DNA of 64,000 bases from positions 10,706 through 74,705 of the forward strand of contig JAZQTW010000015.1 in assembly GCA_045630985.1 (NCBI GenBank). The letters are read 5' to 3'. The notes below the pieces were generated by a model. It was not told where the DNA came from. It ran no database searches and worked only from the letters and a program-made list of their open reading frames with translations. Shown here in pieces: positions 5,503-56,341 of this stretch (position 1 is the first letter of the stretch; each line of letters opens with the position of its first letter). A program made the position numbers and the translations under genes. This DNA is from Alphaproteobacteria bacterium (GTDB lineage Bacteria > Pseudomonadota > Alphaproteobacteria > RF32 > CAG-239).

Positions 5503-6162
5503 CTATTGATTAAATTCTTTAAGAGATAATCTTATCAATGTACCTAAATCTGCTGTTGGATTTTTTAGGCAAATTTCTGAGGCAACTCGGTATGCGTCTG
5601 TTCTTTGATATCCGAGATTAGTTAAAGCAGAAGTTACATCTTCTGTTTTTTGATAAATTTCATCATCTGTATCTGAAACTGTATTTTGAGGAGTAGGTTG
5701 TTTGGTTGGTGTTTTATCTTCTATATCAGATAATTCTGCTCCAGACATATATTCTATAGGGATTGTTACAATTTTATCTTTTAATTCTGTAACAAGTCTT
5801 GCGGCTAGTTTTGGACCAACACCAGATGCTCTTAAAAATGAACTTTTATCTTGTGCTGATACTGCTTGAGATAGTTGTGCAGGAGATAAAACACTTAATA
5901 TACTTAAACAAACTTTTCCGCCAACACCTTGTATTTTTGTGAGAGTGTTGAACCATTCTTTTTCCCATGCATTTTGAAAACCAAAAAGGGTGATACTATC
6001 TTCTTTTATAACAGTTTCTATTAATAAGGAAGAATATTCTCCTTGTTTTAGTTTAGAAAGTGAGCGAGAAGACATGTAAACAAGATAGCCAACGCCATTA
6101 ACATCTATTATTGCACAGTCTTCGCCAATGTTATCTATAATTCCTTTTAGTTTTGCAATCAT
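5503..6162 (-). CDS. ruvA: Holliday junction DNA-binding protein RuvA
   Basis: [29 protein letters not shown]-terminus, helix-hairpin-helix [10 protein letters not shown]; immediately upstream of ruvB. Confidence 0.9.
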
Positions 6163-24331: not shown

Positions 24332-24418
24332 GCGCTTGTGGCGGAACAGGTAGACGCTGCAGACTTAAAATCTGTTGGGAGCAATCCCGTGCCGGTTCGA
24401 TTCCGGCCTAGCGCACCA
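24332..24418 (+). tRNA. tRNA-Leu (anticodon TAA)
   Basis: GCGCTTG acceptor stem, GGTAGA D-loop, anticodon loop CTTAAAA, long variable arm, GGTTCGATTCC T-arm, 3' CCA encoded; 87 nt. Confidence 0.85.
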
Positions 24419-24426
24419 TCTTTGTT

Positions 24427-24454
24427 AAAAGCACCTTTTTAGGTGCTTTTTTTG
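24427..24454 (+). terminator. intrinsic terminator after tRNA-Leu
   Basis: AAAGCACC-ttttta-GGTGCTTT + T-run. Confidence 0.7.
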
Positions 24455-24505
24455 TTGTATATTATGCTTTTTTTTGATAAAATCATATTAAATTGATAAT
24501 ATTTT

Positions 24506-25807
24506 ATGGATGGAGATATTATGTCTAGCTTAAAAGAAAGAATAGAACGTTTACGTGAAACAATCTCAGGTGGTAGAGAGAGTAATGAGACCTATATGTC
24601 TAAGATGCGTAATTGGTGTTGCGTGCATACAACAAGATATGAACCAAAGAAAAATAATGATGGAGAGCTATATATAGAGACAACAGCTATGGCAACAGGT
24701 AATGAATTACCAAGAGCCTCTATACATGTAACACTGAATCAGGTTGTTGCTAGTCATCTGGGAGGCAATTGGGATGATGCTCCTATTGTGGTGATAGCTC
24801 CATATAATGATGTTGTTGAAAAGAATGGTAATCCTCAAGAAGTATCAACAGCAGATACTTATTTTATTCCGAATCCAGATACAGGATTGGTTTTGCCTAA
24901 TAGTGTGTATATTGTTAAGCCAAGTAAAGACGGAGATGCTTTGTTTGAAGTTGGTGAAAATGTGGCAACCTATAAAACAGATAATTATACTGCTGAAGAA
25001 ATAGAAGAGATTTTATCTCTTAGCGAGTTTGATAGATATCGATATGATGAATATATGAAGGGAAATGTTTCTGAGTATAGTGTAAAAGGTGTTTTAGGCT
25101 ACGATGAAAATTTGATTAAAGTGTATGAAGGAACAGAAGATAAACAAGCTTTTATGCGTGGAATTTTTGAAGAAGATAGATTTGTTATATTGAATAAATT
25201 GCTACGTGATGCAGTTGTTAAAATGGCAATGGAAAAAATGGATTTTAGATACGTTTTATCGCATGAAGATGAAGTGACAGGAGTTGTTGCAGAGGTTGCA
25301 AGAGATGAAGGTATAAGAGGAGATAGTGGTAACAAAGGACATTCTTGTTCATTGGAATGTGAATTAGAGCAAGAAGGCTGTGCGTTGGTTGCTGTGTCTC
25401 GTAAATTAAGAGAAGGTAATGTTGATGAAGCTGTGGATGCTTTGGGCGGATGTTCTAGTGTAGTTAGTGATAAATTTATTTCTTGTGTGTTAAATGATAC
25501 TCCTTTTGTGGATTTTCATGATATGTATAAAAAATCATTTGATGACTATATGAGACGAAAGGTAGCTTTTGTTGGTAAGGGTGATGATGAGCCAAAAACA
25601 ATTGAAGAATATAATCCTAATTTAGATGTGGTTTTGAAGCGTCATTCTATTCAAATGGCTAGAGAACTTAATCAATCAATGAATGAACTGAAGAAAGATC
25701 CAGAAAAATACGAGGATTTAAAGATACACTTGAGAGAAAAGCAAGAAATGCAAAGACAAGCAAATAGTATAAAAATGGGAAGAGATAGCGATTTTGGTAA
25801 CTGGTAG
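24506..25807 (+). CDS. hypothetical protein, 433 aa, no recognised domain (tRNA-adjacent orphan)
   Basis: long ORF with coding-like composition; start 24506 or 24521. Confidence 0.5.
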   Translation: MDGDIMSSLKERIERLRETISGGRESNETYMSKMRNWCCVHTTRYEPKKNNDGELYIETTAMATGNELPRASIHVTLNQVVASHLGGNWDDAPIVVIAPYNDVVEKNGNPQEVSTADTYFIPNPDTGLVLPNSVYIVKPSKDGDALFEVGENVATYKTDNYTAEEIEEILSLSEFDRYRYDEYMKGNVSEYSVKGVLGYDENLIKVYEGTEDKQAFMRGIFEEDRFVILNKLLRDAVVKMAMEKMDFRYVLSHEDEVTGVVAEVARDEGIRGDSGNKGHSCSLECELEQEGCALVAVSRKLREGNVDEAVDALGGCSSVVSDKFISCVLNDTPFVDFHDMYKKSFDDYMRRKVAFVGKGDDEPKTIEEYNPNLDVVLKRHSIQMARELNQSMNELKKDPEKYEDLKIHLREKQEMQRQANSIKMGRDSDFGNW

Positions 25808-42693: not shown

Positions 42694-43962
42694 TTGATTT
42701 TGATTAGGAGAACCCTTTTGAATATAGAAGAATATTATGATAAGTTAAAAAAAGAGCGTAAAGGAAAGAGTTTTGCTTTTTTAGCTGAACGTGTTGAGAA
42801 ATCTGCTGATGCCCCTTATGGTATAGCTGTTGCTAGACCTATTGAACCAGATGATGTTGTTGTTTTATTTTTAGCTGGTAATGGTGGTAAAGGTAAGCAT
42901 TTAAAAGAATATAATGGGTATCTTAAAAAGGTTGATGATTTTATAAAACAACAAAAAGAATTTGCAGGTAAGAGTGTTAGGGTTTGTATTGCTGTGTGTG
43001 ATATTGGAGAGTATCATAGACCTAAGCTGGCTAGAGATTTGTTGTATTATGAGGCATGGAAAGCTACAGAATATACTGAAGCTGATTTAAGAGGTGCTTC
43101 GGATGTTGTGAAAGAAGAAAATATAAATCCAAGCTATATTAAAGATATTTATGATTTGGCTATAAAGCCAAAAGTTGAAGCAGGTGGTTCTGATTTAAGA
43201 GCTATGCGTTATTATATGCGCACAATTACTGCAGTTACTCATTGTCATGGTGGATATGTAAATTTGCGCATGGAACAATTGCTTAATAATGATTTGAAAA
43301 AAAATGGCTTTAACAAAATAGAACGGGATTTAATATTTAGACGTGTTTTTTCTGTAAACTATTCGCCTGATGCTCCTGTTTGGTTGGCCAAATCAAATTA
43401 TGTTTGTATAGAATCGGCTCAAGATGATCATGCTCAATATCAATCTAAATTAAAAGAATATTTTCAAATGACACATCCTGATTTTGGTTTAATAATGCTT
43501 CCCTCTATAAATAACACTAGGATATTTATGTGTGCACAGGTTGATAAAGCAGGGGTTGAAGGTAATCCTAAGAGAAAAAAAGAATTGCTTAGAGAAGAGT
43601 TTGGGGTTAAATATTATGGATATAAAGATGTTGACCCCGAAGATATTGGAGAGCACGACTTTTTAGGATTTAAAAAAGTAAAAAATATGAGTAAAAGTGC
43701 TATAAAAATGCAGACATTTGCAAATAATATTTTGCGAGGTTCTATTAGAAATTCTTTAAAACAAACAAAAGATAAATTATCGTTAACACCAAATGTTATG
43801 AGATTGGCATCTGAAACACCAAAACAATTTGCAGAGTTTGTAAAAGCATTTATAAAATCTCAAAGAGAAGTTATTAGATGTCAATTTACTAATAAAAAAG
43901 AGTTAGCTGCTTTTATGGAATGGCATCAAAACTGTAGAGTATCTAAGGAAGATGAGTTATAA
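42694..43962 (+). CDS. hypothetical protein, 422 aa, no recognised domain (abuts 3' end of tRNA-Arg)
   Basis: long ORF; track start is a TTG inside a hairpin so true start uncertain; stop 4 nt from tRNA-Arg 3' end. Confidence 0.5.
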   Translation: MILIRRTLLNIEEYYDKLKKERKGKSFAFLAERVEKSADAPYGIAVARPIEPDDVVVLFLAGNGGKGKHLKEYNGYLKKVDDFIKQQKEFAGKSVRVCIAVCDIGEYHRPKLARDLLYYEAWKATEYTEADLRGASDVVKEENINPSYIKDIYDLAIKPKVEAGGSDLRAMRYYMRTITAVTHCHGGYVNLRMEQLLNNDLKKNGFNKIERDLIFRRVFSVNYSPDAPVWLAKSNYVCIESAQDDHAQYQSKLKEYFQMTHPDFGLIMLPSINNTRIFMCAQVDKAGVEGNPKRKKELLREEFGVKYYGYKDVDPEDIGEHDFLGFKKVKNMSKSAIKMQTFANNILRGSIRNSLKQTKDKLSLTPNVMRLASETPKQFAEFVKAFIKSQREVIRCQFTNKKELAAFMEWHQNCRVSKEDEL

Positions 43963-44587: not shown

Positions 44588-44664
44588 CGGAATGTAGTTC
44601 AGCCTGGTAGAGCGCTTGCATGGGGTGCAAGAAGTCGGAGGTTCGAATCCTCTCATTCCGACCA
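44588..44664 (+). tRNA. tRNA-Pro (anticodon GGG)
   Basis: CGGAATG acceptor, AGCCTGGTAGAGC D-arm, anticodon loop ATGGGGT (G37), GGAGGTTCGAATCCTCT T-arm, CATTCCG-A-CCA. Confidence 0.85.
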
Positions 44665-44668
44665 TAAA

Positions 44669-44700
44669 AAAGTCCTACCCTTGTGGTAGGATTTTTTTAT
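44669..44700 (+). terminator. intrinsic terminator after tRNA-Pro
   Basis: TCCTACC-cttgt-GGTAGGA + TTTTTTTAT. Confidence 0.75.
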
Positions 44701-44725
44701 GGTATGAGGTTAGAAGCTCCGAGGA

Positions 44726-44835
44726 AGGAGGTTCGACTACAAGTGAAAGGTGGACGGAAGAACACCGGTCAGCTGAAAGCTGATGAGCGCCAGTGCGATT
44801 GAGTGAAACGAAAATCAATCCTCTCATTCCGACCA
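44726..44835 (+). pseudogene. 3'-half pseudo-tRNA-Pro: variable loop and T-stem 5' strand (GAAGGAGGTTCGA), an ~80-nt insertion in the T loop, then an exact T-stem 3' strand + acceptor 3' strand + CCA
   Basis: GAAGGAGGTTCGA (44726-44738) matches tRNA GAAGTCGGAGGTTCGA with a 2-nt deletion; AATCCTCTCATTCCGACCA (44817-44835) is identical to tRNA-Pro 44646-44664. Confidence 0.5.
44817..44835 (+). repeat. direct repeat copy B of tRNA-Pro 3' end (19/19 nt)
   Basis: AATCCTCTCATTCCGACCA identical to 44646-44664. Confidence 0.85.
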
Positions 44836-44845
44836 ACTATATAAC

Positions 44846-44880
44846 ATAGTATGTGCATGCATACTATGGTATTTTTTTGA
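44846..44880 (+). terminator. intrinsic terminator (24-nt perfect palindrome + T-run)
   Basis: CATAGTATGTGCATGCATACTATG followed by GTATTTTTTTG. Confidence 0.65.
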
Positions 44881-44941
44881 GAAAATACTTGCATTATATT
44901 GCTGTTTAATTTAAATTTGAAGTGATTGGAGAAAAAATAGT

Positions 44942-45586
44942 ATGAAGGATATCATCCACACCGAACGGTTGTATTTAACCCCATTAAATAAAAAGGATGT
45001 CGCGCGCTATGTCCAAATCGCAAAAAATATGCGCATTGCCAAGGAGAAAAATCCCAGCTATTTTTTATACACGCGATTTGATTACAATTCAGCAAAAAGT
45101 GATGCTGATTTGACAGAGGCTGCCATGGGGCTTTTAACAAGTGCAGAAAAATCAATATTTCCAGAAACTACAAAACGTTTGAATATTTGTTTGAAAAATG
45201 GGTATATTATAGGTTATATTGGTTTTTTTCATAATCCTGATCAGAAAATTAGCAGTGATTTGGGCATTTTTTTAGACCCAAATTATGAGCATAAAGGATA
45301 TGCATTTGAAGCCCAGAAAAACTTATTGGCTTATTATTTTCTAAATTATGATGATAAAATTTACCTAACAATTTATCCTAAAAATTTGCCCTCATATCAA
45401 TTAAACACAAAATGTGGTGCTGTAAAAATTGACTATAGTGAAACATCGAAATACGGCTCGGAAAGAGATATCTTGGTCATTACTCGGAAAAAATTTATTG
45501 AAACAGTTTTTCAGAAAAAATTTACAACGCCAGAAAAAGAAAAACAATTTTTACTAGATTACTTAAAAATCTATAACAGAATTTAA
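44942..45586 (+). CDS. GNAT-family N-acetyltransferase (RimJ/RimL-like, Acetyltransf_3-type)
   Basis: TERLYLTPLNKKD N-terminal motif of RimL-like GNATs, acetyl-CoA region …GYIGF…DLGIFLDPNYEHKGYAFEA; GGAG RBS. Confidence 0.7.
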   Translation: MKDIIHTERLYLTPLNKKDVARYVQIAKNMRIAKEKNPSYFLYTRFDYNSAKSDADLTEAAMGLLTSAEKSIFPETTKRLNICLKNGYIIGYIGFFHNPDQKISSDLGIFLDPNYEHKGYAFEAQKNLLAYYFLNYDDKIYLTIYPKNLPSYQLNTKCGAVKIDYSETSKYGSERDILVITRKKFIETVFQKKFTTPEKEKQFLLDYLKIYNRI

Positions 45587-45649
45587 AGCGTTTAGTGTTA
45601 TAAGAAAAACAGGAATTTTTTGATGGTATCTTTTTCTCGATTTTGGTGG

Positions 45650-45669
45650 CTCATTCCGACCATAAAAAA
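45650..45669 (+). repeat. direct repeat copy C of tRNA-Pro 3' end plus 3' flank (20/20 nt)
   Basis: CTCATTCCGACCATAAAAAA identical to 44652-44671. Confidence 0.85.
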
Positions 45670-45670
45670 A

Positions 45671-45697
45671 GCCACTCTTTATGAGTGGTTTTTTTGT
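45671..45697 (+). terminator. intrinsic terminator following repeat copy C
   Basis: GCCACTC-tttat-GAGTGGT + TTTTTTTG. Confidence 0.65.
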
Positions 45698-45734
45698 TAT
45701 ATTTAACAAGTAACTTTAGCTAATAAAACCAAAA

Positions 45735-45770
45735 GGCTTGGATTTCTCCAAGCCTTTTGGTTTACATAAA
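45735..45770 (-). terminator. intrinsic terminator of the 416-aa gene
   Basis: AAACCAAAAGGCTTGGA-tttct-CCAAGCCTTTTGGTTT long perfect hairpin. Confidence 0.7.
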
Positions 45771-47021
45771 TTATCCTTCTTCGGTTTTACTTTCCAATAT
45801 CTTAAAACCATTTGATATTTCCAGTAATGTAGTCAGCGAAAAATCAGATGTTTTTAATTTTCTTATATCGGAGTAAAGCTTCTCATAATCTCTCTGTACC
45901 GTAGAAATCTTTTTTGAAGTTAGTGAACATTTTTCTACAATCTCGCCCAATTGTGCTTCATAAACCTCTCTATCCTGTGCTATTGCTTTTATCCCAACCT
46001 CATGAGATCTTACCACCATATCATCCCACAGTGGCAAAAATTCCGTACGAAGTATAGAATCCCACTTTTTACAATACCTGTCCTGATAAACATCTTTTAA
46101 TCTATCGCACATCAACCTCTGTATTGAAGTTGACATTAAAGACAAGGTGTGTTGGATACTATTCAAAGCATTAGACATATTAACGGCCAATTTTTCTACA
46201 GCTTCAGCAATAGGAACGGTTAGCTCCAAAACATTATCTGTATAAAATACTGGGAATATAGGATTATGAATATACAACTCATGATGACCTGTTTTGGGTT
46301 TTATCCGACCCGTATCAAAAATTTCTGAATCATCTACTCTTTTAATATTAAAAAAATAGAAATCTTCACAATCATAATCCTCACTCAAAATTTTAGCAAT
46401 TTTTGAATTTGCTTCCTCGTGTGTATCAAAAATAAAACAAGCAAAATAACTACCATAAGGACCATGCATACAATGATTGTTTTTATCAATCATATTATGT
46501 AACAGACTATAAGGATCATAAAGATTTTGTGCAGTAATTCCCATGCTCTTCATGTAGTCTTTTAAGCGGTAGCTACAACACTCTCGTCCTCTGCAATAGT
46601 GATATTTTAAAACCTTGGGTTGTCCGTATATACCATAATAGATTTGCTCATTAAGTTTGAAAAATGAAGGAAATTCTTCAAAAGATTCAACCATACATTT
46701 ATCATGCTCAACAAAACACTCATTAAGAATATCAAAATAAATGTCTTTCCAGATAATTTTCTCTCTCAAATCTTTCATGGTGACACGAACATATTCACTC
46801 TTGCTCTTCTCACCATAATTAACTTGTTTAGGCAACTTATATACTCTGAATTTATATACCATGTTATAGCCATGATTATTTTGCATAAGTATTGGCTGCT
46901 TGAGATTTTTATACCACAGTTTACCAAAAACAAAATGGTACATATTCCACCCATCTTTTTTGCATAAAGAATTTATGAATCTGTACATAAATTCCGGATT
47001 AAGATATTCTTCTCTAACCAT
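45771..47021 (-). CDS. hypothetical protein, 416 aa, Cys/His/Tyr-rich N-half, no recognised domain
   Basis: long ORF; no Shine-Dalgarno; conserved ~100-nt upstream leader shared with the 338-aa gene at 53434..54450. Confidence 0.5.
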   Translation of the reverse strand: MVREEYLNPEFMYRFINSLCKKDGWNMYHFVFGKLWYKNLKQPILMQNNHGYNMVYKFRVYKLPKQVNYGEKSKSEYVRVTMKDLREKIIWKDIYFDILNECFVEHDKCMVESFEEFPSFFKLNEQIYYGIYGQPKVLKYHYCRGRECCSYRLKDYMKSMGITAQNLYDPYSLLHNMIDKNNHCMHGPYGSYFACFIFDTHEEANSKIAKILSEDYDCEDFYFFNIKRVDDSEIFDTGRIKPKTGHHELYIHNPIFPVFYTDNVLELTVPIAEAVEKLAVNMSNALNSIQHTLSLMSTSIQRLMCDRLKDVYQDRYCKKWDSILRTEFLPLWDDMVVRSHEVGIKAIAQDREVYEAQLGEIVEKCSLTSKKISTVQRDYEKLYSDIRKLKTSDFSLTTLLEISNGFKILESKTEEG

Positions 47022-47050
47022 AATAGATAATATTTAAATAGTTTAACATC

Positions 47051-47120
47051 ATAATTTTTAATAGTGGGCAGATGATAATCTATTTTATTATAAAAATCAA
47101 ATGTTTTTATGTCTAATTTT
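47051..47120 (-). promoter_or_regulatory. conserved promoter/5' leader copy 1 (gene-sense: AAAATTAGACATAAAAACATTTGATTTTT … CCACTATTAAAAATTA)
   Basis: box ATAATTTTTAATAGTGG (47051-67) and AAAAATCAAATGTTTTTATGTCTAATTTT (47093-47120) both repeated at 54484-54557; gene-sense -35 TTGATT, 17 nt, -10 TATCAT. Confidence 0.55.
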
Positions 47121-47181
47121 CGGAAAATTGTTGTTTTCTGATTTGTCACTATTTTTTTAAGATATAAAAGTCAAGTTATAG

Positions 47182-47246
47182 CCTAGTGGTCGGTGTATTG
47201 TATTGAAAAACAATAAAAAAATTATTACCACACCTAGTGGGCGGTG
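47182..47246. repeat. two copies of CCTAGTGG(T/G)CGGTG 51 nt apart in a 400-bp non-coding region
   Basis: 47182-47195 and 47233-47246; locally GC-rich in an AT-rich spacer. Confidence 0.5.
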
Positions 47247-47379
47247 AACAAAAGCCAACCTCACCATTGTGGATGAGAAGGTTTGCCAACGTTAAAATAA
47301 CACTTTGTAAAATAATAAAAAAATTGCCTTATCAAAAACAAGGTATTTTTTTCTAATTTAGAGTGGGGGAACGCGACCA

Positions 47380-47426
47380 TTGTAAAAAAAAAAGAGGAAG
47401 AATTTTCTTCCTCTTTTTTTATTGTT
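47380..47426. terminator. bidirectional intrinsic terminator
   Basis: A10-GAGGAAGA-att-TTCTTCCTC-T9. Confidence 0.75.
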
Positions 47427-47428
47427 TT

Positions 47429-48064
47429 TTAGAAACCTATTACTTTTTTAGCTGCTTTTAAGTAGTTGGTATTTGGCATTTTATCTATACCTAAAGCTTC
47501 AACAGCGGTTTTCATCTTTGTGTAGTCTTCACTTTCACAACAAGCTGTTTCTACTAAAGCGCCATTCATCCAAACATAAGCATATTCGCAAATTACATCA
47601 TTTACAGAAAATCCATAGCGTTTCTTTTCTACTGTAACTAGAGCTAATTGATGATGGTTGCGTGCAAGCTCACAGAACTCTTCAAAAGAATATTCGTCTT
47701 TATCTAAGTCTAACTCTACTTTGAGGTGAGAAAGAATTGTTGCTAACTCTTCTTTTTTTACAGGGAAATTGAATTTTCCTCTAGGTTGGAAAATTTCATA
47801 TCCTTCTGGTGTTTCGCCAACTTTTGTTTTGATATCTAATAAATCATCGCGCACTTTTACGTTTGCTTCATCAGTCTTTTTAGATAAAATATATGTTTCT
47901 GCAGGCATTACACGTGCTTTATATAATACTGCTTTGCAGTTCCACATATTTTCTTTAACACCTTCTATAATATCTTTACCAAAAACTCTAAATTCGGCGC
48001 GAGGTGTTAATTTGGCAGCTTCGTCTGCTGATTGAGCTACATTTTTTGCAAAAACGTCTGTCAT
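47429..48064 (-). CDS. hypothetical protein, 211 aa (possibly a divergent CYTH-like domain), last gene of patatin-CYTH operon
   Basis: 24-nt gap to upstream CYTH gene; weak CYTH-like strand pattern (EFRVFGKD… VKVRDD… DIKTKVGE…) but lacks ExExK. Confidence 0.5.
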   Translation of the reverse strand: MTDVFAKNVAQSADEAAKLTPRAEFRVFGKDIIEGVKENMWNCKAVLYKARVMPAETYILSKKTDEANVKVRDDLLDIKTKVGETPEGYEIFQPRGKFNFPVKKEELATILSHLKVELDLDKDEYSFEEFCELARNHHQLALVTVEKKRYGFSVNDVICEYAYVWMNGALVETACCESEDYTKMKTAVEALGIDKMPNTNYLKAAKKVIGF

Positions 48065-49486: not shown

Positions 49487-49584
49487 ATTATCTATCCTTG
49501 TTTCTGTAAATTATTTGGAAAATTAGAACAAAACCCCAATATGGTCAATATAATAATCTATTTTTTAGTATGTATGTTATAAAT

Positions 49585-49613
49585 TTGACAAAGGGTGTTT
49601 TTTGTGATATACT
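49585..49613 (+). promoter_or_regulatory. sigma70-type promoter, copy 1 of conserved 27-nt core TTTGACAAAGGGTGTTTTTTGTGATAT
   Basis: -35 TTGACA (49585-90), 17-nt spacer, extended -10 TGaTATACT (49608-13). Confidence 0.65.
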
Positions 49614-49639
49614 GTATAAATATTGAAGGAGATAAGGGG

Positions 49640-49726
49640 ATGGAAAATGTATTAAATAATATGTGTAAAAGATTTGAGAATACCTTGAAAGTGGCGGTTT
49701 TCTACACACACACACACACACACACT
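49640..49726 (+). CDS. 28-codon leader ORF (MENVLNNMCKRFENTLKVAVFYTHTHTH*) containing (AC)10
   Basis: AGGAG RBS 8 nt upstream of ATG 49640; TAA immediately after the dinucleotide repeat; located between promoter and terminator. Confidence 0.35.
49704..49723 (+). repeat. (AC)10 dinucleotide microsatellite inside the leader ORF
   Basis: acacacacacacacacacac, only such tract in the window. Confidence 0.95.
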
Positions 49727-49756
49727 AACAAACCCTGCCGAGAAAATTTTTAACTA

Positions 49757-49797
49757 AGACCTCAAAGGTAACGAATTCCTTTGAGGTTTTGTTATTT
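49757..49797 (+). terminator. intrinsic terminator / attenuator 22 nt upstream of the 623-aa gene RBS
   Basis: ACCTCAAAGG-taacgaatt-CCTTTGAGGT (10-bp stem) + TTTTGTTATTT. Confidence 0.75.
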
Positions 49798-49818
49798 AAA
49801 ATATAAGGGAGACAAGAA

Positions 49819-51690
49819 ATGGATGGAGCTTTGTTAAAAGATATTTTTGAGAGGAGTTATGCTAATGAGTTAGTAGAATGTATTCGCTCAAATGGTAATG
49901 TAGATGATTTTATAAAAAATTTAGAAGAAAAACAAAGTGATGAACAACAATCTAAAATATATCAGTTTGTGGAGTATTATAAAAAGGTTTTAGAATATCC
50001 AAGTGATATTTCTAAAGAAGAAATATTGAAATCTGGTCTAAGTGAACAATATATTGAACGACAAATTATGGAAAGTAAATTTCCGGGTGAAGCTTTTAGG
50101 TCTATTAGAAGAATGTATGAGCAATTAGATAGACCGGCAGCTCCAATGGTTGCATTTAGGAGAGAGTATGCGGGGGGAGATATTGTTGAAAAATTAAAAC
50201 AAAAAGGTTTTGATGTTGCTACAGAAGATGATGAGAGGGCTGTTAATACAGATGTTTTTGTTGTAGATAAGCAATCTAGGACAATAAATGCTCCATTTTT
50301 AGCTCCGGATGAAGCATTGAAGGCTAATATAGCTATGATAGATGCTATTTATGAATGTGGATCTGAAGCATATTTATCTAGTCCAAGAACTAGAGAAACA
50401 TTTGCTATTGCAACTCATGAGCCTTTGTCTCAAGAAGAAGGAGTTGGATTAGATTTAGAAATAATAGCTTCTCATTATTCAAAAGATAATTATGAGAGGG
50501 TTATGAATAATTTTTATCAAGAATGTATAGAGGGAGAAGAACCGTACAAGATATTATGCAATTTTATAGATCACATAAAACCAAGGGATTTAGACCTACA
50601 TGATAAAATTATCAAAGAAGGAAAAGAAAGGTTTCCACGTTATTTATCCAGTGATTTATTAAAAGAAATAGAAGAAGAAGCTAGAAAAATTTTAGTAGAG
50701 CATAAAGAGGAGTTTATGCCTTATGTAAAATATGTGTATCAATATATGATGAAAGAAGAAGCATTTGAAAAAGGGATTGATTCGCATATTCCAGATAAGG
50801 AAAATATAGAAATGCTAGAACAAAATAAACCGATAACATCAGTTTTTCATGGAGGGAAAAAAGGTGGATTACCATATTCAATATTTGCTCGTAGGAAGGA
50901 AAAAAATATGATTCATACTTATGCGGCATCTATGATGGATTATGAAGTATATTCGGGAGGGAGTACTTCAAATAATCCTGTTGGGTATGCGGTTGCAGCT
51001 TCCTGTCATAATGCAAGGTCATTTGCGATATCTTTTGGTTTTGTTTATGAATATAAGTCTAGAGGAGAAAATCAGGAGATGTTGCTCTTGGATAGTGGTA
51101 GTAAACCATTTGATGGGGGAAAGTTTGTTGCCCCATACTCTGATGAAACAGCTGTGTATCCGCATCAAAATAAATTAAAAAAAATATATATTGCAACAAA
51201 GAGAGATGGGGTTTTTAGAGTTCTTCCATTAGAGGTAGATGAAGAAGGTAAAGTTAAAGATGCAAGATGGCGAGAATTTGTTGAATTGCATAACCCGGTG
51301 GATGATACATTATCTGGATTTATGGTTGATAGACAGAATAATATGATTGCGGAATATGATAAGTTAGGCAAAGAAAAGATGATGGATAGACGCTTAAGCA
51401 TTGATATTGGTGCAAAAAATATTTCTTTACCAATAAATTCGGAAAATGAAAGTGTAGAAAAAGTTGAAAGTTTATCTGCTGTATCTTCTGTATCAGTAGC
51501 AGAGATGTCTGAGAAGGAGAAGTATGTTTTCTTTAAAGCGCTTAGTAGAGGGGAGAATATGTTTCTTAATAAACATGAAGAAGCACAACAATTGGTTAAA
51601 AATGAGGAACAAACTAAAGTTACTTCTTTACAAAAAACGAAAGATTGTCAAAGAGTGATAGTTAATAGTAGAGATAAGGATAGAGATTAA
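49819..51690 (+). CDS. hypothetical protein, 623 aa, acidic, no recognised domain (candidate secreted effector)
   Basis: AAGGGAG RBS 7 nt upstream; long ORF with coding-like composition. Confidence 0.55.
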   Translation: MDGALLKDIFERSYANELVECIRSNGNVDDFIKNLEEKQSDEQQSKIYQFVEYYKKVLEYPSDISKEEILKSGLSEQYIERQIMESKFPGEAFRSIRRMYEQLDRPAAPMVAFRREYAGGDIVEKLKQKGFDVATEDDERAVNTDVFVVDKQSRTINAPFLAPDEALKANIAMIDAIYECGSEAYLSSPRTRETFAIATHEPLSQEEGVGLDLEIIASHYSKDNYERVMNNFYQECIEGEEPYKILCNFIDHIKPRDLDLHDKIIKEGKERFPRYLSSDLLKEIEEEARKILVEHKEEFMPYVKYVYQYMMKEEAFEKGIDSHIPDKENIEMLEQNKPITSVFHGGKKGGLPYSIFARRKEKNMIHTYAASMMDYEVYSGGSTSNNPVGYAVAASCHNARSFAISFGFVYEYKSRGENQEMLLLDSGSKPFDGGKFVAPYSDETAVYPHQNKLKKIYIATKRDGVFRVLPLEVDEEGKVKDARWREFVELHNPVDDTLSGFMVDRQNNMIAEYDKLGKEKMMDRRLSIDIGAKNISLPINSENESVEKVESLSAVSSVSVAEMSEKEKYVFFKALSRGENMFLNKHEEAQQLVKNEEQTKVTSLQKTKDCQRVIVNSRDKDRD

Positions 51691-51736
51691 TTTTATTTAT
51701 ACAATGTAGATGTTTTATATAAATATATGTATGTGT

Positions 51737-51765
51737 TTGACAAAGGGTGTTTTTTGTGATATGTT
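51737..51765 (+). promoter_or_regulatory. sigma70-type promoter, copy 2 of the conserved 27-nt core
   Basis: -35 TTGACA (51737-42), identical 17-nt spacer AAGGGTGTTTTTTGTGA, -10 TATGTT. Confidence 0.6.
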
Positions 51766-51797
51766 ATACGTATATTGTAAATTAAGGGAGGATTGAT

Positions 51798-52349
51798 ATG
51801 GTAAATGTAGCGCCTATAATTGCGGCGACAGCGGCAATGAATGCAGCATCAGCGGCTTTGAATGCAAAAAGAGTTTTAAATAAAGGTAAAAGAGTTCCAA
51901 CTGAAGAAGAAATAAAGAAAAACCAAGAGTATAAGGATAATGAAAAGGCTTTGAGTGAGGATTATGCAAAAGCTTATAAGAGAGCAAGGGCTAGTGTTGA
52001 TGAGAGTAAGACTGTTGTTGAATCACAAGATAGAATGGAAAAAGTTACTGCATATTATGATGATAAAGGAAATCTTTTAATACGTGAAACAGCATTGACT
52101 TTTATGATTGATGGAGAAACAACAACAGAAATTTATTCTCCTTACTCAGGTAAAAAGTTGTTTAGTAATAGAGTTTATCATAGTCCTGAAGAGGATATTG
52201 AGCATATTACTCATTATGATAGTGAAGGTAATGATGATACTCAGATGTATGCTAAAAAGAAGAAGCTTGAAGCTAAAAGAGATAAAGAAAAAGCAAAGAA
52301 GAGACTTAGAAGGATGAAACTTAATAGAGTCTTTCATAAAGGGAGATAA
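51798..52349 (+). CDS. hypothetical lysine-rich protein, 183 aa
   Basis: AAGGGAGG RBS 6 nt upstream; Ala-rich N-terminus (MVNVAPIIAATAAMNAASAAL), basic C-terminus. Confidence 0.5.
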   Translation: MVNVAPIIAATAAMNAASAALNAKRVLNKGKRVPTEEEIKKNQEYKDNEKALSEDYAKAYKRARASVDESKTVVESQDRMEKVTAYYDDKGNLLIRETALTFMIDGETTTEIYSPYSGKKLFSNRVYHSPEEDIEHITHYDSEGNDDTQMYAKKKKLEAKRDKEKAKKRLRRMKLNRVFHKGR

Positions 52350-52417
52350 AATAAATTGCATATAATGAAAAAACGGCATTTGTTATGCCGTTTTTTCATT
52401 GTGTTGAATTGGAAGAT

Positions 52418-52867
52418 TTATCGCTTTCCATAAACAATGATGTATTGATTATCACCTTTGTCAGCTAAAAGATATCCTACTTTATATCCTAGCTTGAAAG
52501 CGTTTTCACCATGATACCCATAGTTAGTAATCTTCCAACTTGTTGGGGTGTTTATGTATGTATGTACATTAAAACCTATGGAATTAAATTCGTAATATGT
52601 GTTTTTTGAATTTATTCCATAACTTCCGTTTGGAGTTATGTACATATCATGATAATCACCATCCTCTAGATAATTGCTATCGGAATTTTGCATAAATGCA
52701 TATACAAAATCCGCATCTTTTACAGCCTCTACTGAGGGTTGAGCATCACAGTATTCCTTTGTAGAATAGCATTCGCCATCTAAAAGGATGTTACCATCGC
52801 ATACTATTTGTGCGAAGGTAGTTGTACTAGTGAGAACTAGTAGCAAAGAAATAAAAATCTGTTTCAT
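52418..52867 (-). CDS. small secreted protein with signal peptide, Tyr/Asn/Gly-rich
   Basis: MKQIFISLLLVLTSTTTFA|QI signal peptide; 4 Cys near N-terminus. Confidence 0.5.
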   Translation of the reverse strand: MKQIFISLLLVLTSTTTFAQIVCDGNILLDGECYSTKEYCDAQPSVEAVKDADFVYAFMQNSDSNYLEDGDYHDMYITPNGSYGINSKNTYYEFNSIGFNVHTYINTPTSWKITNYGYHGENAFKLGYKVGYLLADKGDNQYIIVYGKR

Positions 52868-52970
52868 AAAAAATAATATTTGGTTATTAGATTTGTTTAT
52901 ATCACATTTTTAAGATTGTTGCAATAGTTTTTTGTACAAAAAAACCACCCAGTAAGGGTGGTGGTGTTAG

Positions 52971-53288
52971 CTATTCTTCTTTAAATGCTTTTATTAGGCT
53001 TGATAAAGCGATAATTAGACCTATAAAGAAGAAAATGCAGAAAATTATTAGAGATGTTGGTGTTGATACCCATGCTAGGTATATTGCAAAAGCTATTATG
53101 TAGTAGATAATAAAGTACATACAGCGCAAAATTATTTGTTTGTACTGGATTACCTCATTGGGAGTTGCTTTTGTAGTACATAGGCGAATGCGCCTTTTTT
53201 CCCATCTTCTAAGGAAATAGATGAAGCATAAGCAAAAAAGTATCAAGCTTATAGCCCATACATACAGAACAATTCTTGTTACTTCCAT
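52971..53288 (-). CDS. small membrane protein (3 TM)
   Basis: hydrophobic segments; weak. Confidence 0.3.
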   Translation of the reverse strand: MEVTRIVLYVWAISLILFCLCFIYFLRRWEKRRIRLCTTKATPNEVIQYKQIILRCMYFIIYYIIAFAIYLAWVSTPTSLIIFCIFFFIGLIIALSSLIKAFKEE

Positions 53289-53433
53289 AATGAATAATAA
53301 TTTATAGTGATTAATAATATCTGATTAATGTATAAGATTGGCTGAATTATATAAATGATGCGAATATTGTCAATACGATTGTTGATATAGAAAAAGCCAC
53401 TATGATAGTGGCTTTTAAGTTAGAAAAAATTTG

Positions 53434-54450
53434 CTAAAGTTCTTCCCATTTGATTTTTTTAGGGAACTGCTTGAACCAGTGTTCTTCGGTTATTTCAGGC
53501 ATTTTCAGTTCCAATGTTTGATAAACCATCTTTACCTTGTCAACCCTGTTTACCGGAACGATTCCAGAAGCATTTTTAATGCCGGATTTTTTTAGCAATG
53601 CAACTCGTTCTGATGTATCTGCACGGTGAGTATACCTGAATTCATGTCGCATAGTGATATCCAGACCTTCCAATCGCATATACTCCATGACATCGTATAT
53701 ATACATAGGCAGATAATCTTTTACTTGGCCGGATTTTGGAATTTGTGTGTAACGTCCTATTTGTCCTTTATCAATTTCATATAAAGGATAACGCCAGTAT
53801 TCATTATCATTACCATGATCGATCATAGGTTCTTTAGGTAGATCGTCCACACAAACCGTATATTCTCCCTTTGGAAGTCGGTCAATTTCAGCTCCAAACA
53901 GCAACTCATGGCTTGTGCGTTTCTCAAGTGAATAGTTCTTACAATTCCATAGTTTTGGCAGAGCAAGCATGTGATGAGGGTATGGGTATACCTGAAAATC
54001 TATAAAATAAAGAATGCGGTAATCTGTGATGAACATCATCTTCGGTCTTTCTGCGAATTTGTCGTCATTAGGATAAACTAGCAACACGTTGTTTACACAG
54101 GTTGCTATGATAAATTCTTTTACGTAATCTATCATCACCCTAATACTTTCGTTGTATTTGTCCTTAGAAAAATACGGCGTCCATGGGTTGTCAGGAAGAA
54201 GTGATTTCACATTTTCATAAGAAAAGTCAATCACCCAAACAGGACCGCCGGTTCTATGGCTTCCCCAAGTGCTGCTGTTGACAACAGTAAGGATAATTTC
54301 TTCCCATTCCTTGTTTCTCAATACTGCAAAATGGTGCTTGACCGGTTCGTTAAGCCAAGAGATGAACTCTTGTTCGGTGTCAAAGCAAGCTCGGGCTTCT
54401 TCAACACTGTCGATAATAATTTTCCTGATTTCTTCTTCTGTTTTTTTCAT
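53434..54450 (-). CDS. hypothetical protein, 338 aa, no recognised domain
   Basis: long ORF, no SD, upstream leader conserved with the 416-aa gene. Confidence 0.5.
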   Translation of the reverse strand: MKKTEEEIRKIIIDSVEEARACFDTEQEFISWLNEPVKHHFAVLRNKEWEEIILTVVNSSTWGSHRTGGPVWVIDFSYENVKSLLPDNPWTPYFSKDKYNESIRVMIDYVKEFIIATCVNNVLLVYPNDDKFAERPKMMFITDYRILYFIDFQVYPYPHHMLALPKLWNCKNYSLEKRTSHELLFGAEIDRLPKGEYTVCVDDLPKEPMIDHGNDNEYWRYPLYEIDKGQIGRYTQIPKSGQVKDYLPMYIYDVMEYMRLEGLDITMRHEFRYTHRADTSERVALLKKSGIKNASGIVPVNRVDKVKMVYQTLELKMPEITEEHWFKQFPKKIKWEEL

Positions 54451-54483
54451 AATAAGAATATTTAGAATAATTAATTAAACATT

Positions 54484-54557
54484 GTAATTTTTAATAGTGG
54501 AGTGAGTTTAATTCTTTTTAATTTAAAAATCAAATATTTTTTATGTCTAATTTTTTG
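54484..54557 (-). promoter_or_regulatory. conserved promoter/5' leader copy 2
   Basis: GTAATTTTTAATAGTGG (54484-54500) and AAAAATCAAATATTTTTTATGTCTAATTTTTT (54526-54557); gene-sense -35 TTGATT, 17 nt, -10 TAAACT. Confidence 0.55.
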
Positions 54558-54606
54558 CACTATAATCACTAGTTATAAAAAAAACATTCCAATAAAATAA
54601 AAAACC

Positions 54607-54640
54607 TCACCCAAAGGTGAGGTTTTTTATGATAAGAAAG
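54607..54640. terminator. intrinsic terminator
   Basis: AACCTCACC-caaa-GGTGAGGTT + TTTTTAT. Confidence 0.7.
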
Positions 54641-54650
54641 GAGTTTTGTT

Positions 54651-55067
54651 CTACTCGGTGTATACGAATATTTTTCCATCTATCATCTTCTGATTCTTTT
54701 TTAGTTTTACGATTATAGAAGGAAGAACCAAGAGGATAATGAAGAGTACTGCAAGCATAGGAATAAGTGTTTTCATAGTAGATATTCCATATGCAACATT
54801 TAACCAAATAGAAATGAAAAGGTAGGCACAAGCCATTAAACCGCCGAATATTGATGCTTTTGCCAAAGACCATAAGGTTTTTTGATTTGTGATAAAAGCT
54901 TCAGCATGTTCTTTGCTTGGGGCAAAAATGACGCCTTTTACTTTGTTACCCAGTGTGTCATAAGAAAATGGTAAAGCTTCTTTGAAGCCAACATCTTCCG
55001 GCTTTTTACCTTCGTTGTAATGAGAGAAAAAAATGGTAGCTCTCTCTGTCATTGTTAGCATGTCCAT
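54651..55067 (-). CDS. hypothetical membrane protein (138 aa, 2 C-terminal TM helices)
   Basis: ORF with terminator downstream. Confidence 0.45.
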   Translation of the reverse strand: MDMLTMTERATIFFSHYNEGKKPEDVGFKEALPFSYDTLGNKVKGVIFAPSKEHAEAFITNQKTLWSLAKASIFGGLMACAYLFISIWLNVAYGISTMKTLIPMLAVLFIILLVLPSIIVKLKKNQKMIDGKIFVYTE

Positions 55068-55144
55068 AATATAATATTTTTTAGAATAATAAACTTATTT
55101 CGTGGCAGTATATCTTTTTTGTCAAAAAAAGCAAGCGAAATTTT

Positions 55145-56341
55145 TTATGATAGTTTTTTGCTTTTTGTAATTTGATTGGAGAGGATTATGCTTAAGTGTC
55201 CAACATATGCCAAAACCATGCTTAGGCCTAAGATTAGATATTTTAATAGGTAATCTCCACCTATTAAGGAAATTAAGATTATTACTCCAAACCCAATAAT
55301 GCGACCAAAATTTAGCACAAATTCTCGTAAAGCTATATATTCTGCGCGGTAATGTACGATGATAGATTTATCTTGAGATATTTTGTACATGTTGATTTCT
55401 GTGATGGTGCGTAGAGCTTCTCCTGCGCTTGCAAATATGAGATTATAGAGAATGAACGATAGTTTTGTTGTATCAAAAACAAAGTATGATGTTGCTATTA
55501 CAACCATGAGGCTGCTGAAGAAAAGTATCTTTTTAAACGATGTAAAATTACAATATTTTCCTAATATGTAATCTATTGTAACGGCCGAAATTGCAAAAAT
55601 TGAAGTGAAAATACCCAAGTTTAGGTTTGTTTTGAACATATATATAATATAGAGAACTATTAATATATCTGTTATATCTAGAACTGTTCCTTTTAGTAGT
55701 TCGATTTTTAGCGAGTTTTTAATTTTTTCTCTGCGAGTTGCTAAAATCCACAAAGATTTAATATTAAACTTCTTTGCTTTTGATAGTGTTTCTTTTAAGA
55801 AAAATGATAGAAATAGCTGGATTATGGTTAGAACTAAGACGATTATTGCTGTATTGATGAAAGAGTTTAGAGTAATTAGATAGCCTAATATTATTGGCAT
55901 TATTATTTTTGTTATGCCTGAAAATACATAGGAATATCCGGTATATTTGATAATTTGGTTGCCATTTGCAAATTGTGAAATTAGGAGATTTTGTGGGAAC
56001 CAGTAAAACATTTTTTCTAGTCCCAATATTAGTCCTAGTATCCAAATATGTTCTATTATGTTTTCTTTTAGGTAGATTATAGCTAATAGAAGTAAAGCGT
56101 TTGTAAAAAAGCTTAGGCGATATAGAAAAAGTTTTTTACCATTTTTTACTAGTGGTCCAATGAGGGTGAAGCCGACCATTAGTAATAAATAAGTGAAAAT
56201 ATAAAATAAGGATGCTGGGATGATGTTGTTATTAGTTATGTTTAGAAAGTATGCTACTAAAAATGTAGAGTAAAATAGGTTTATTATAGTGTGTATGGTA
56301 TTGATGATAATTAATAACCATGAGTTTTTGTTGAGTTTCAT
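55145..56341 (-). CDS. polytopic membrane transporter, MFS-like (≈12 TM)
   Basis: 398 aa, two 6-TM halves separated by a basic loop. Confidence 0.55.
   Translation of the reverse strand: MKLNKNSWLLIIINTIHTIINLFYSTFLVAYFLNITNNNIIPASLFYIFTYLLLMVGFTLIGPLVKNGKKLFLYRLSFFTNALLLLAIIYLKENIIEHIWILGLILGLEKMFYWFPQNLLISQFANGNQIIKYTGYSYVFSGITKIIMPIILGYLITLNSFINTAIIVLVLTIIQLFLSFFLKETLSKAKKFNIKSLWILATRREKIKNSLKIELLKGTVLDITDILIVLYIIYMFKTNLNLGIFTSIFAISAVTIDYILGKYCNFTSFKKILFFSSLMVVIATSYFVFDTTKLSFILYNLIFASAGEALRTITEINMYKISQDKSIIVHYRAEYIALREFVLNFGRIIGFGVIILISLIGGDYLLKYLILGLSMVLAYVGHLSIILSNQITKSKKLS

Follow-up and report, generated by a model that had tools for sequence, protein, structure and literature searches.

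In a 64,000-nucleotide (nt) stretch of DNA from an alphaproteobacterium (contig JAZQTW010000015.1, assembly GCA_045630985.1; hereafter, the window), the 3′ end of a tRNA-Pro(GGG) gene is followed by a 2.7-kb array (44665–47379) of three modules, split at CCA ends (44665–44835, 44836–45662 and 45663–47379). Each has its own terminator at the left end and ...CGACCA at the right end. The reading that we favor, and consider probable, is that three recombinase-less modules have been stacked at the 3′ end of this tRNA gene, the first an element resembling the rtT/RtT repeats of Escherichia coli and the other two cargo cassettes. The tRNA gene itself (44588–44664, + strand) was called by ARAGORN and scored 59.4 bits with the Rfam tRNA model, and its last bases (core A, ...TTCCGACCA) would be the primary insertion point.

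Partial copies of the tRNA-Pro end punctuate the array. The terminal 19-mer of the gene, AATCCTCTCATTCCGACCA (44646–44664), has an exact second copy at 44817–44835 (copy B), and CTCATTCCGACCATAAAAAA (44652–44671), made up of the last 13 nt of the tRNA and 7 nt of downstream flank, recurs exactly at 45650–45669 (copy C). A 13-mer common to the copies, CTCATTCCGACCA, occurs three times in the window, compared to 0.00 expected from 100 dinucleotide-preserving shuffles. Because the repeats are exact and non-random relative to the shuffles, we take them to be real. A fourth, shorter tRNA-like end (...GGGGGAACGCGACCA) lies within 47342–47379, where core D (CGCGACCA, 47372–47379) closes the array. 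Inverted-repeat and terminator scans showed that the terminator-like hairpins after the three copies differ (44665–44703, 44845–44868, 45665–45695). Both exact repeats and the distinct hairpin after each copy had been reported in a first-pass annotation of this DNA, and all of them stand. That annotation also described an 836-bp segment between copies B and C with a lone GNAT acetyltransferase gene; the sole sizeable open reading frame (ORF) of the interval, at 44942–45586, is indeed a GNAT, but the interval measures 814 nt (833 nt start to start). It missed the GC-rich structured element before copy B and the fourth core at 47372–47379. ARAGORN and Rfam, the latter at gathering thresholds, detected three tRNAs in the window and nothing else.

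To delimit the accessory DNA, we compared the window with ten syntenic loci (L001–L010), ruminant-gut metagenome contigs or metagenome-assembled genomes (MAGs) that encode an identical L28 protein just upstream. All the comparative loci are metagenome assemblies, but the arrangements recur in independent assemblies. Upstream gene order is the same in all ten (accA, hsp20, a methyltransferase, a LuxR-type response regulator with a GerE domain, rsmE, cmk, a 414-aa ORF, tRNA-Arg, L28, tRNA-Pro), and the downstream block of a 211-aa ORF, a CYTH protein and a patatin is present in nine, the exception being L002, with a 131-aa ORF and then patatin directly. The loci differ solely between tRNA-Pro and the conserved downstream block. 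After tRNA-Pro, four of them (L003, L004, L005, L010) have only a terminator and then a 185-aa gene, whereas L001 and L006 have 174 bp more, made up of a terminator, a GC-rich element and a tRNA end, plus a 133-aa gene. L007 carries the 174-bp unit only; L008 and L009, with the same tRNA sequence as the window, have the unit, a 4.3-kb island and the unit again, the island encoding a nucleoside deoxyribosyltransferase, PnuC, an F420-ligase-like protein and a nucleotidyltransferase. L001 and L003 are thus distinguished by a clean 174-bp indel of module 1. The presence/absence polymorphism that the first-pass annotation had proposed to look for among related strains is therefore evident at this locus.

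In the window, the conserved chromosome restarts at 47380, with a flank 94% identical to the sequence after the CCA of the second unit in L009. Because the flank after 47379 is the one that directly follows the core in L009, the accessory DNA is exactly 44665–47379. Beyond it lie a terminator (47387–47420, from the terminator scan), which has a homologous flank in L001–L010, and the convergent 211-aa gene; this is probably the original tRNA-Pro terminator, which that gene would share. The segment had earlier been described as the start of an accessory region that follows; accessory it is, but it is bounded, ending at 47379 rather than simply continuing.

Module 1 contains an RtT-like, tRNA-linked structured element (44693–44835, + strand) that shows 72–99% identity in related loci. 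We found members of this family by pattern scans of genome and metagenome collections and with a covariance model, CM R1, trained solely on alphaproteobacterial elements, which scores the window copy at 168 bits. The ∼135 nt before copy B have a GC content of ∼50%, compared to ∼30% around them, and start with GGAGGTTCGA, a second tRNA piece (the 5′ strand of the T stem and half of the T loop). The left end of the module is termA (44665–44703), a terminator made of an A-run, a GC hairpin and a T-run that came up in the terminator scan and as an inverted repeat with 95% complementarity; its extended hairpin (arms 44661–44679 and 44685–44703) takes in the ACCA of the tRNA. Similar elements occur in "Alphaproteobacteria bacterium" MAGs after tRNA-Pro (GGG, TGG and CGG), tRNA-Ser(TGA), tRNA-Met(CAT), tRNA-Val(TAC) and tRNA-Gly(GCC), in some cases as tandem units repeating every 168 nt, and in copy numbers from 0 to 3.

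All share a five-part order: an inverted copy of local tRNA positions 49 to ∼63, a short loop, a direct copy of positions 49–58, a conserved core, and tRNA positions 58–76. The core, ∼85 nt long, consists of CTACNAGCGAAAG, a hairpin, GG, a hairpin, ATGAGCGCCAGTGCGA, an optional hairpin and CGAAGTCA. In the window copy, helix P1 (44713–44720/44727–44734), with strands GAAGCTCC and GGAGGTTC, pairs the inverted with the direct copy of tRNA positions 49–56. Helices P2 (44749–44752/44763–44766) and P3 (44768–44774/44778–44784), the conserved block TGAGCGCCAGTGCGA (44784–44798) and helix P4 (44797–44802/44815–44820) follow, and a possible closing stem, P0, would join 44700–44709 to 44822–44831. The 3′ end is core B (44817–44835, + strand), an exact copy of tRNA positions 58–76 and the likely insertion point of the GNAT cassette. 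Copy B, which had been read as an attachment-site leftover of a decayed island, is instead an integral part, the 3′ end, of a conserved RtT-like module that follows many tRNA genes.

We next tabulated 17 element/tRNA pairs, E. coli tRNA-Tyr included. The direct copy of tRNA positions 49–58 matches at 9–10 of 10 positions, and the inverted T-arm copy at 6–8 of 8 in 16 of the pairs (for the 17th, E. coli rtT unit 1, the script took the wrong segment). The tail is identical to tRNA positions 58–76 (19/19) in 10 of the 17, the window element among them. Across Pro, Ser, Met, Val, Gly and Tyr, the P1 hairpin changes in step with tRNA type. RNAalifold predicted four hairpins from an 18-sequence MAFFT alignment, in which 94.9% of cells in the P1–P3 hairpins are paired, compared to 27–50% in slid controls, with compensatory changes in 7 pairs (31 cells). 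The covariation score is 0.279, versus 0.160 ± 0.012 in shuffles, and none of 500 shuffles reaches it. Because G-U pairs are common in the alignment and A·C pairs are not, the structure can be placed on the tRNA-sense strand, as RNA or single-stranded DNA. The inverted copy of the T-arm half always fits the local tRNA. Recombination with the tRNA gene can account for the two direct copies but not for the complementary one; either P1 is kept by selection, or the mechanism that creates the units copies the T arm in both senses.

Several other identities were considered for the element and set aside. A hammerhead ribozyme was suggested by a CUGAUGAG...GAAAC motif, with an HH9 score of 16.8 bits versus a gathering score of 52. 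In the L001 lineage CUGAUGAG is replaced by CUUAUGAG, and GAAAC falls in a lineage-specific insertion; the hammerhead was rejected because its catalytic core is not conserved in other lineages. For tmRNA, YrlA or another known tRNA-like RNA, the three tRNAs mentioned above were the only calls. Two side observations concern the ends of such modules. Some elements (L012 2411–2542, L014 5240–5371, L015 498–641) finish in GAGTGGCGACCA or GAGTTGCGACCA, 1 nt longer than a normal tRNA end; these match no tRNA in the DNA examined, and their C1-G72/A73-type end looks Pro-like. At the left end, termA and its counterpart in module 3, termC, behave as alleles at one position (window 44665–44703 versus 45663–45695; L025 8088–8120 versus L027, at the same tRNA-Pro(TGG) locus). 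Between L025 and L027 the A-run, T-run and flanks are identical and the entire stem–loop is swapped, GTCCTACC.. by AGCCACTC..; from these sequences the difference looks like hairpin replacement rather than point mutation.

Module 1 is RtT-like in that it has the same architecture as the E. coli repeats, although by gathering score it is not a member of the Rfam family; distant homology with rtT is probable. RtT (RF00391) is the sole Rfam family that aligns over exactly the span of the element, at 17.9 bits for the window and 21.8 bits for L013. Conversely, CM R1 gave 28.2 bits (E ∼3e-6 in 395 kb, these E-values being rough) to the unit in the E. coli tyrT–tyrV spacer and 11–13 bits to the three rtT repeats, compared to 2.6 bits for the tRNA-Tyr genes themselves, and its alignments to all four E. 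coli units are full-length, ending at CCACCACCA. The spacer unit (E. coli K-12, NC_000913.3 1285500–1288500 = L040, minus strand 1990–1864) outscores the annotated rtT repeats with CM R1 and is not annotated as RtT in K-12. In the K-12 units, ...GGGGAAGGATGAGAAGCTTCGACCAAGGTTCGACT... represents the inverted and direct T-arm half of tRNA-Tyr and is followed by GAGCGCCAGCGA and then by ...GAGTAATCC plus the 19-nt tRNA end. The inverted/direct T-arm hairpin takes the form GAAGCTTC..AAGGTTCGA there, and the window element has its equivalent. It likewise lies in a tRNA trailer and ends in the last 19 nt of the tRNA with CCA.

Among known systems, rtT of the tyrT–tyrV trailer (gene rttR) comes closest. 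In both cases, units of ∼130–180 nt stand right after a tRNA gene, often in tandem, and end in the last 19 nt of the tRNA with CCA. Both have a hairpin GAA(G/C)C..-loop-..GGTTCGA, with a G.G mismatch common to the rtT repeats and the window element, and both contain the motifs AGCGAAAG, GAGCGCCAG.GCGA and GCGACGA..AATCC. Copy number varies by strain in both, and detection is reciprocal, if weak in one direction. They differ in that the order of internal helices is partly distinct, the alphaproteobacterial locus has a strong terminator between tRNA and element, and the alphaproteobacterial family is linked to no fewer than six different tRNA genes and is found in the company of mobile gene cassettes, whereas the annotated RtT of E. 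coli is that at tyrT. We counted 0–4 RtT units after tyrV across 5,426 E. coli genomes, with 21 matches on plasmids; only copy-number variation was seen at the rtT cores in these genomes, where insertions of cargo were not specifically examined. Our literature search found no paper taking RtT beyond enteric bacteria, and a 2024 preprint still calls the mode of action of rtT unknown.

Module 2 (44836–45662, + strand) is a cassette made up of a left palindrome/terminator, a putative promoter, the GNAT gene, a cassette-end (CE) motif and core C. The palindrome, termB (44845–44868), consists of CATAGTATGTGCATGCATACTATG followed by a T-run, and the same left end comes after cores in L012, L013, L041, L042 and L044. 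The gene (44942–45586, + strand) encodes a RimJ/RimL-like acetyltransferase of 214 aa that matches Pfam Acetyltransf_3 (52.6 bits versus a cut-off of 25.4, E = 1e-13). By eye, a putative promoter (TTGCAT-17-TAAATT, 44890–44918) resembles that of the tRNA, and repeat D16 links the two promoter regions, so the cassette may well carry a promoter of its own. The right end is formed by the CE motif GATGGTATCTTTTTCTCGATTTTGGTGG (45622–45649, + strand), delimited in an alignment of ten right ends, and core C, CTCATTCCGACCA (45650–45662, + strand).

We compared the contig flanks of the closest GNAT homologs, which have 98%, 90% and 86% amino-acid identity. In L041 (GCA_045611705.1), the cassette, 97.7% identical over 840 nt, belongs to an array after a different tRNA-Pro(GGG), 78% identical to that of the window and with no synteny. 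The similarity runs from the 13-nt core on the left to the CCA of the right-hand core; all other flanks are unrelated, the L041 cassette having an ankyrin-gene cassette before it and a degenerate RtT-like unit after it. In L042 and L043, it stands immediately behind tRNA-Pro(CGG) and the RtT-like element of that tRNA (78% nucleotide identity, in an alignment that includes tRNA and element). In L044, L045 and L046 (81% nucleotide identity), no tRNA lies within 6 kb, and CE motif plus ...CCA are found on both sides. The cassette ends are identical in these three contexts and the window. Every copy has the left end NNTANATAACATAGTA...TACTATGTTATTTTTT, a palindrome/terminator that also comes after cores in L012 and L013, the cargo in L013 not being the GNAT. 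We judge the shared 13-nt core too short for ordinary homologous exchange of the cassette, and these comparisons indicate that the GNAT unit has moved between genomes. More distant homologs, at 68–75% amino-acid identity, come after tRNA-Leu or recA and have no recognizable cassette-end motifs and no CM R1 match.

The surroundings of the cassette in L044–L046 (GNAT at 6001–6645 in L044) are of some interest in themselves. There it lies between a gene for a class II aminoacyl-tRNA synthetase and a phage-like block with a large serine recombinase, resolvase fragments, Dam, an ImmA-like peptidase and Bor, and a similar recombinase block occurs near the distant GNAT homolog in L047/L048.

Module 3 (45663–47379, + strand) comprises termC (45665–45695), a bidirectional terminator (45726–45763), a 416-aa ORF on the minus strand (45771–47021), a promoter region, a CE motif and core D. 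There is 100% identity between termC and the hairpin located before the element in L025 and L026. The ORF, which is the cargo, matches nothing in Pfam, NCBIfam or PADLOC and is preceded by a promoter-like site, TAGACA-17-TATAAT, at 47115–47087. CE motif GGTATTTTTTTCTAATTTAGAGTGGGGGAA and core D, CGCGACCA, occupy 47342–47379 (+ strand) and end the array. The right-hand ∼350 bp of this module (47011–47361) share 83% identity with the right part of another cassette, in L027. A related observation is that the region upstream of the 416-aa ORF (47019–47120) is ∼78% identical to that before unrelated ORFs of 336–338 aa in related genomes (e.g. L003 14928–15034), and the window has a 338-aa ORF of its own at 53434–54450; on this comparison, different uncharacterized genes appear to share one portable promoter/5′ region.

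The CE motif is the second conserved feature of the cassettes. In the alignment, right ends with different cargo (GNAT, 416-aa ORF, ankyrin, isochorismatase and others) keep a fixed register to CCA, with gaps at a few columns only. The consensus, of ∼45 nt, is GGTATC-TTTTTCY-GATTT-AGRGG-N-CCGACCA, and CGACCA is common to nearly all junctions. A small hairpin could form between the pyrimidine and purine strands around a GATTT loop; it is weak and without clear covariation. CE might also be a decayed tRNA-Pro 3′ part: compared by eye, only GGGGTG (at about the right distance from the end) and the 3′ end itself match, with the middle at chance level.

How might such an array arise? The comparisons show that insertions always sit directly behind a tRNA-like ...CGACCA and in a single orientation, that each unit brings a left terminator and a new right ...CGACCA, and that one unit has passed between genomes with just 13 nt of flank in common. 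In the mechanism we propose, each module would have inserted at the ...CGACCA of the tRNA or of an earlier module's copy, pushing older modules downstream. Because each module brings a terminator and its own ...CGACCA, the tRNA stays intact and terminated. Module 1 would most likely give rise, like its E. coli counterpart, to a tRNA-like RNA processed from the trailer, and by duplicating the tRNA end it would also supply an extra insertion point. Modules 2 and 3 would be cargo cassettes, with a conserved left hairpin and the conserved ∼45-nt right-end motif, and a site-specific enzyme encoded elsewhere would recognize these ends and act in trans. The conventional candidate is a tyrosine recombinase that would cross over within 6–7 bp at the very 3′ end of the tRNA. 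The alternative candidate would be a single-strand HUH transposase, in view of the subterminal hairpins, the position of insertions 3′ of a pentanucleotide and the complementarity of the conserved TGGT to ACCA.

A number of results weigh against this scheme. The trans-acting recombinase is hypothetical: Pfam recombinase domains are absent from the GNAT, the 416-aa ORF, their neighbors, 10 integrase-sized ORFs of the window and 9 cargo ORFs of related arrays. Viral contigs gave 0 matches to the element and CE patterns, leaving no autonomous relative there, and a phage or satellite source was discarded on the same count. For module 1, both the window and the L013 element stay far below the RtT gathering score of 45 bits. 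The strong terminator between tRNA-Pro and the element argues against simple co-transcription, and our promoter/terminator scan of the window found no promoter for the element. In a duplex-energy cross-test, P0 was clear for E. coli and ambiguous or weak for the alphaproteobacterial elements, and we have accordingly dropped it as a general closing stem. The tails other than the 10 perfect ones are foreign or truncated, with mismatches to the adjacent tRNA in L012a, L015, L022 and L023, and therefore modules get shuffled. Likewise, the L001/L003 indel can be placed in several registers, and its two flanking terminators differ by compensatory changes, from which it follows that unequal or homologous exchange between modules also occurs.

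Such exchange might even be the whole story. On this account, which we think unlikely, no dedicated enzyme is needed: tRNA end, terminator and RtT-like modules are dispersed repeats, and RecA-dependent or microhomology-mediated exchange between them is what swaps, duplicates or removes cargo, much as unequal crossing-over alters rtT copy number in E. coli. It fits the tandem modules in varying number (0–3 here, 0–4 after E. coli tyrV), the hybrid elements that combine hairpin halves or tails of different lineages (e.g. L012a), and the exchange of terminator alleles in L025 and L027, where the flanks are otherwise the same. That plain homologous or unequal exchange has a part in the shuffling and in changes of RtT-like copy number is certain, as the hybrids and swapped terminator stems attest. 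Alone, it explains the GNAT junctions poorly: the flanks of the cassette in the window and L041 share the 13-nt core only, while the inside is 97.7% identical, the boundary nucleotide after CCA is the same in every context, and the CE motif is conserved independently of cargo.

The first-pass annotation offered another explanation, namely, that integrase-encoding islands had integrated serially in tRNA-Pro and then lost their integrase and most of their cargo, stranding the GNAT between attL/attR scars. Direct repeats of the tRNA 3′ part do flank the insert (cores A–D) at a strain-variable hotspot, and tandem elements split by partial tRNAs, with degenerate remnants, are known from tycheposon islands (bioRxiv 10.1101/2020.12.28.424599). 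As proposed there, successive insertions are marked by the tRNA 3′-end copies. Yet copy B belongs to a conserved, structured, multi-copy module that follows many tRNA genes, the GNAT unit has identical ends in all four of its contexts and is never accompanied by an integrase or integrase fragment, and ten right ends with one motif in fixed register are unlike random deletion scars. The statement that no integrase remains agrees with our data, as no recombinase domain or remnant was found in the ORFs tested. Precomputed Pfam lists for L001–L010 and L041–L043 contain no recombinase within the arrays, and in the 20+ loci examined the units never carry one. An overlooked integrase was considered as well: the 416-aa ORF near copy C and a 433-aa ORF after tRNA-Leu have no family match, and the ten integrase-sized window ORFs are housekeeping enzymes. 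Loss of an integrase is unsupported because the same GNAT unit, with the same ends, lacks one in three other contexts and because no recombinase domain was detected; the units appear to lack integrase intrinsically, and we regard the decayed-island explanation as improbable. We give still less credence, indeed very little, to movement of the cassettes as single-stranded DNA by an HUH/Y1 transposase (IS200/IS605 or RAYT type) supplied in trans, with insertion 3′ of GACCA and subterminal end hairpins as the recognition structure. Insertion is always right after ...GACCA, units end in ...GACCA and have one orientation, a left subterminal palindrome is combined with a small right-end hairpin, and structure conservation that tolerates G-T would suit single-stranded DNA. 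Elements of the IS200/IS605 type use pairing between guide and cleavage site, and the TGGT of CE, complementary to the terminal ACCA, recalls this. However, no Y1 transposase was seen in any ORF tested, a search that did not extend to whole genomes, the left-end hairpins vary freely and resemble ordinary terminators, and the CE hairpin is weak and not clearly covarying. To our knowledge, the IS200/IS605 family offers no precedent for kilobase cargo or tRNA-end targeting. Stacking of recombinase-less modules by site-specific insertion remains the reading we prefer.

Some observations concern the wider neighborhood. The tRNA-Arg/L28/tRNA-Pro hotspot is framed by ORFs of 422 aa (42694–43962, + strand) and 211 aa (47429–48064, − strand), which are kept in nearly all related loci (L002 has neither) and match no Pfam, NCBIfam or PADLOC family. 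The latter is followed by the CYTH protein and a patatin-like phospholipase with weak PADLOC "Effector" matches. Past patatin, a second stretch (window 49500–56000) varies between strains when compared with L001–L010, the ORFs between patatin and the MFS and Na-Ca exchanger genes being different; no tRNA or RtT-like element was detected in it. No similar arrays were found at the other tRNAs of the window. In the region of tRNA-Leu(TAA) (24332–25807), the tRNA is followed by the 433-aa ORF mentioned above, and its 3′ end has no repeat in the window.

Among known mobile systems, tRNA-anchored islands are an obvious point of comparison. In the tycheposon islands of Prochlorococcus, partial tRNA copies stand between tandem units, older units are displaced inward by newer ones, and content is strain-specific (bioRxiv 10.1101/2020.12.28.424599). 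These features are shared with the window array, as is insertion at a tRNA gene that is regenerated, which also applies to the accretion of integrative elements and cis-mobilizable elements (CIMEs). Such islands, however, encode an integrase or are clear deletion derivatives of ones that do, whereas the units of the window type are 0.17–4.3 kb long and have conserved end motifs that are not tRNA-derived. Integron cassettes provide a second parallel: they too form arrays at a fixed insertion point, in which the units mostly have a single gene and all face one way, each unit ending in a conserved, possibly structured sequence like a recombination site, without a recombinase of its own, and with one cassette found in different arrays. 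Here the differences are that no IntI/attI platform or integrase stands next to any array, that the GNAT cassette has its own terminator and putative promoter and is anchored at a tRNA 3′ end, and that the end motif GGTATC..TTTTCY.GATTT.GRGG..CGACCA is without RYYYAAC/GTTRRRY cores. The IS200/IS605-derived PATEs and REP/RAYT systems share subterminal hairpins, insertion 3′ of a short fixed sequence, absence of target duplication, one orientation and, on our proposal, mobilization in trans; cargo genes are absent from them, whereas the array of the window has a tRNA end as target and yielded no Y1 transposase.

The tRNA-anchored islet and the RtT-type repeat are thus of known kinds; their combination and its generality appear not to have been described. 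One could go further and suggest, quite tentatively, that RtT-like modules and CE/CGACCA ends form an undescribed integron-like gene-cassette system on tRNA 3′ ends, in which a recombinase encoded elsewhere would insert promoter- and terminator-bearing units after tRNA-like ...CCA; RtT-like modules would then be tRNA-customized landing pads, and E. coli rtT would be a relative or relic of such pads. If rtT is part of a wide family tailored to the adjoining tRNA, comparative material becomes available in the form of covarying helices and many tRNA partners, together with a concrete hypothesis. In the poorly studied gut Alphaproteobacteria, units of one to a few genes, each with set boundaries, pass from genome to genome and accumulate at tRNA ends, and no recombinase belonging to them lies close by. 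For annotation, the case carries a warning, as a tRNA 3′ end repeated beside a tRNA gene need not be the scar of an integrase-bearing island.

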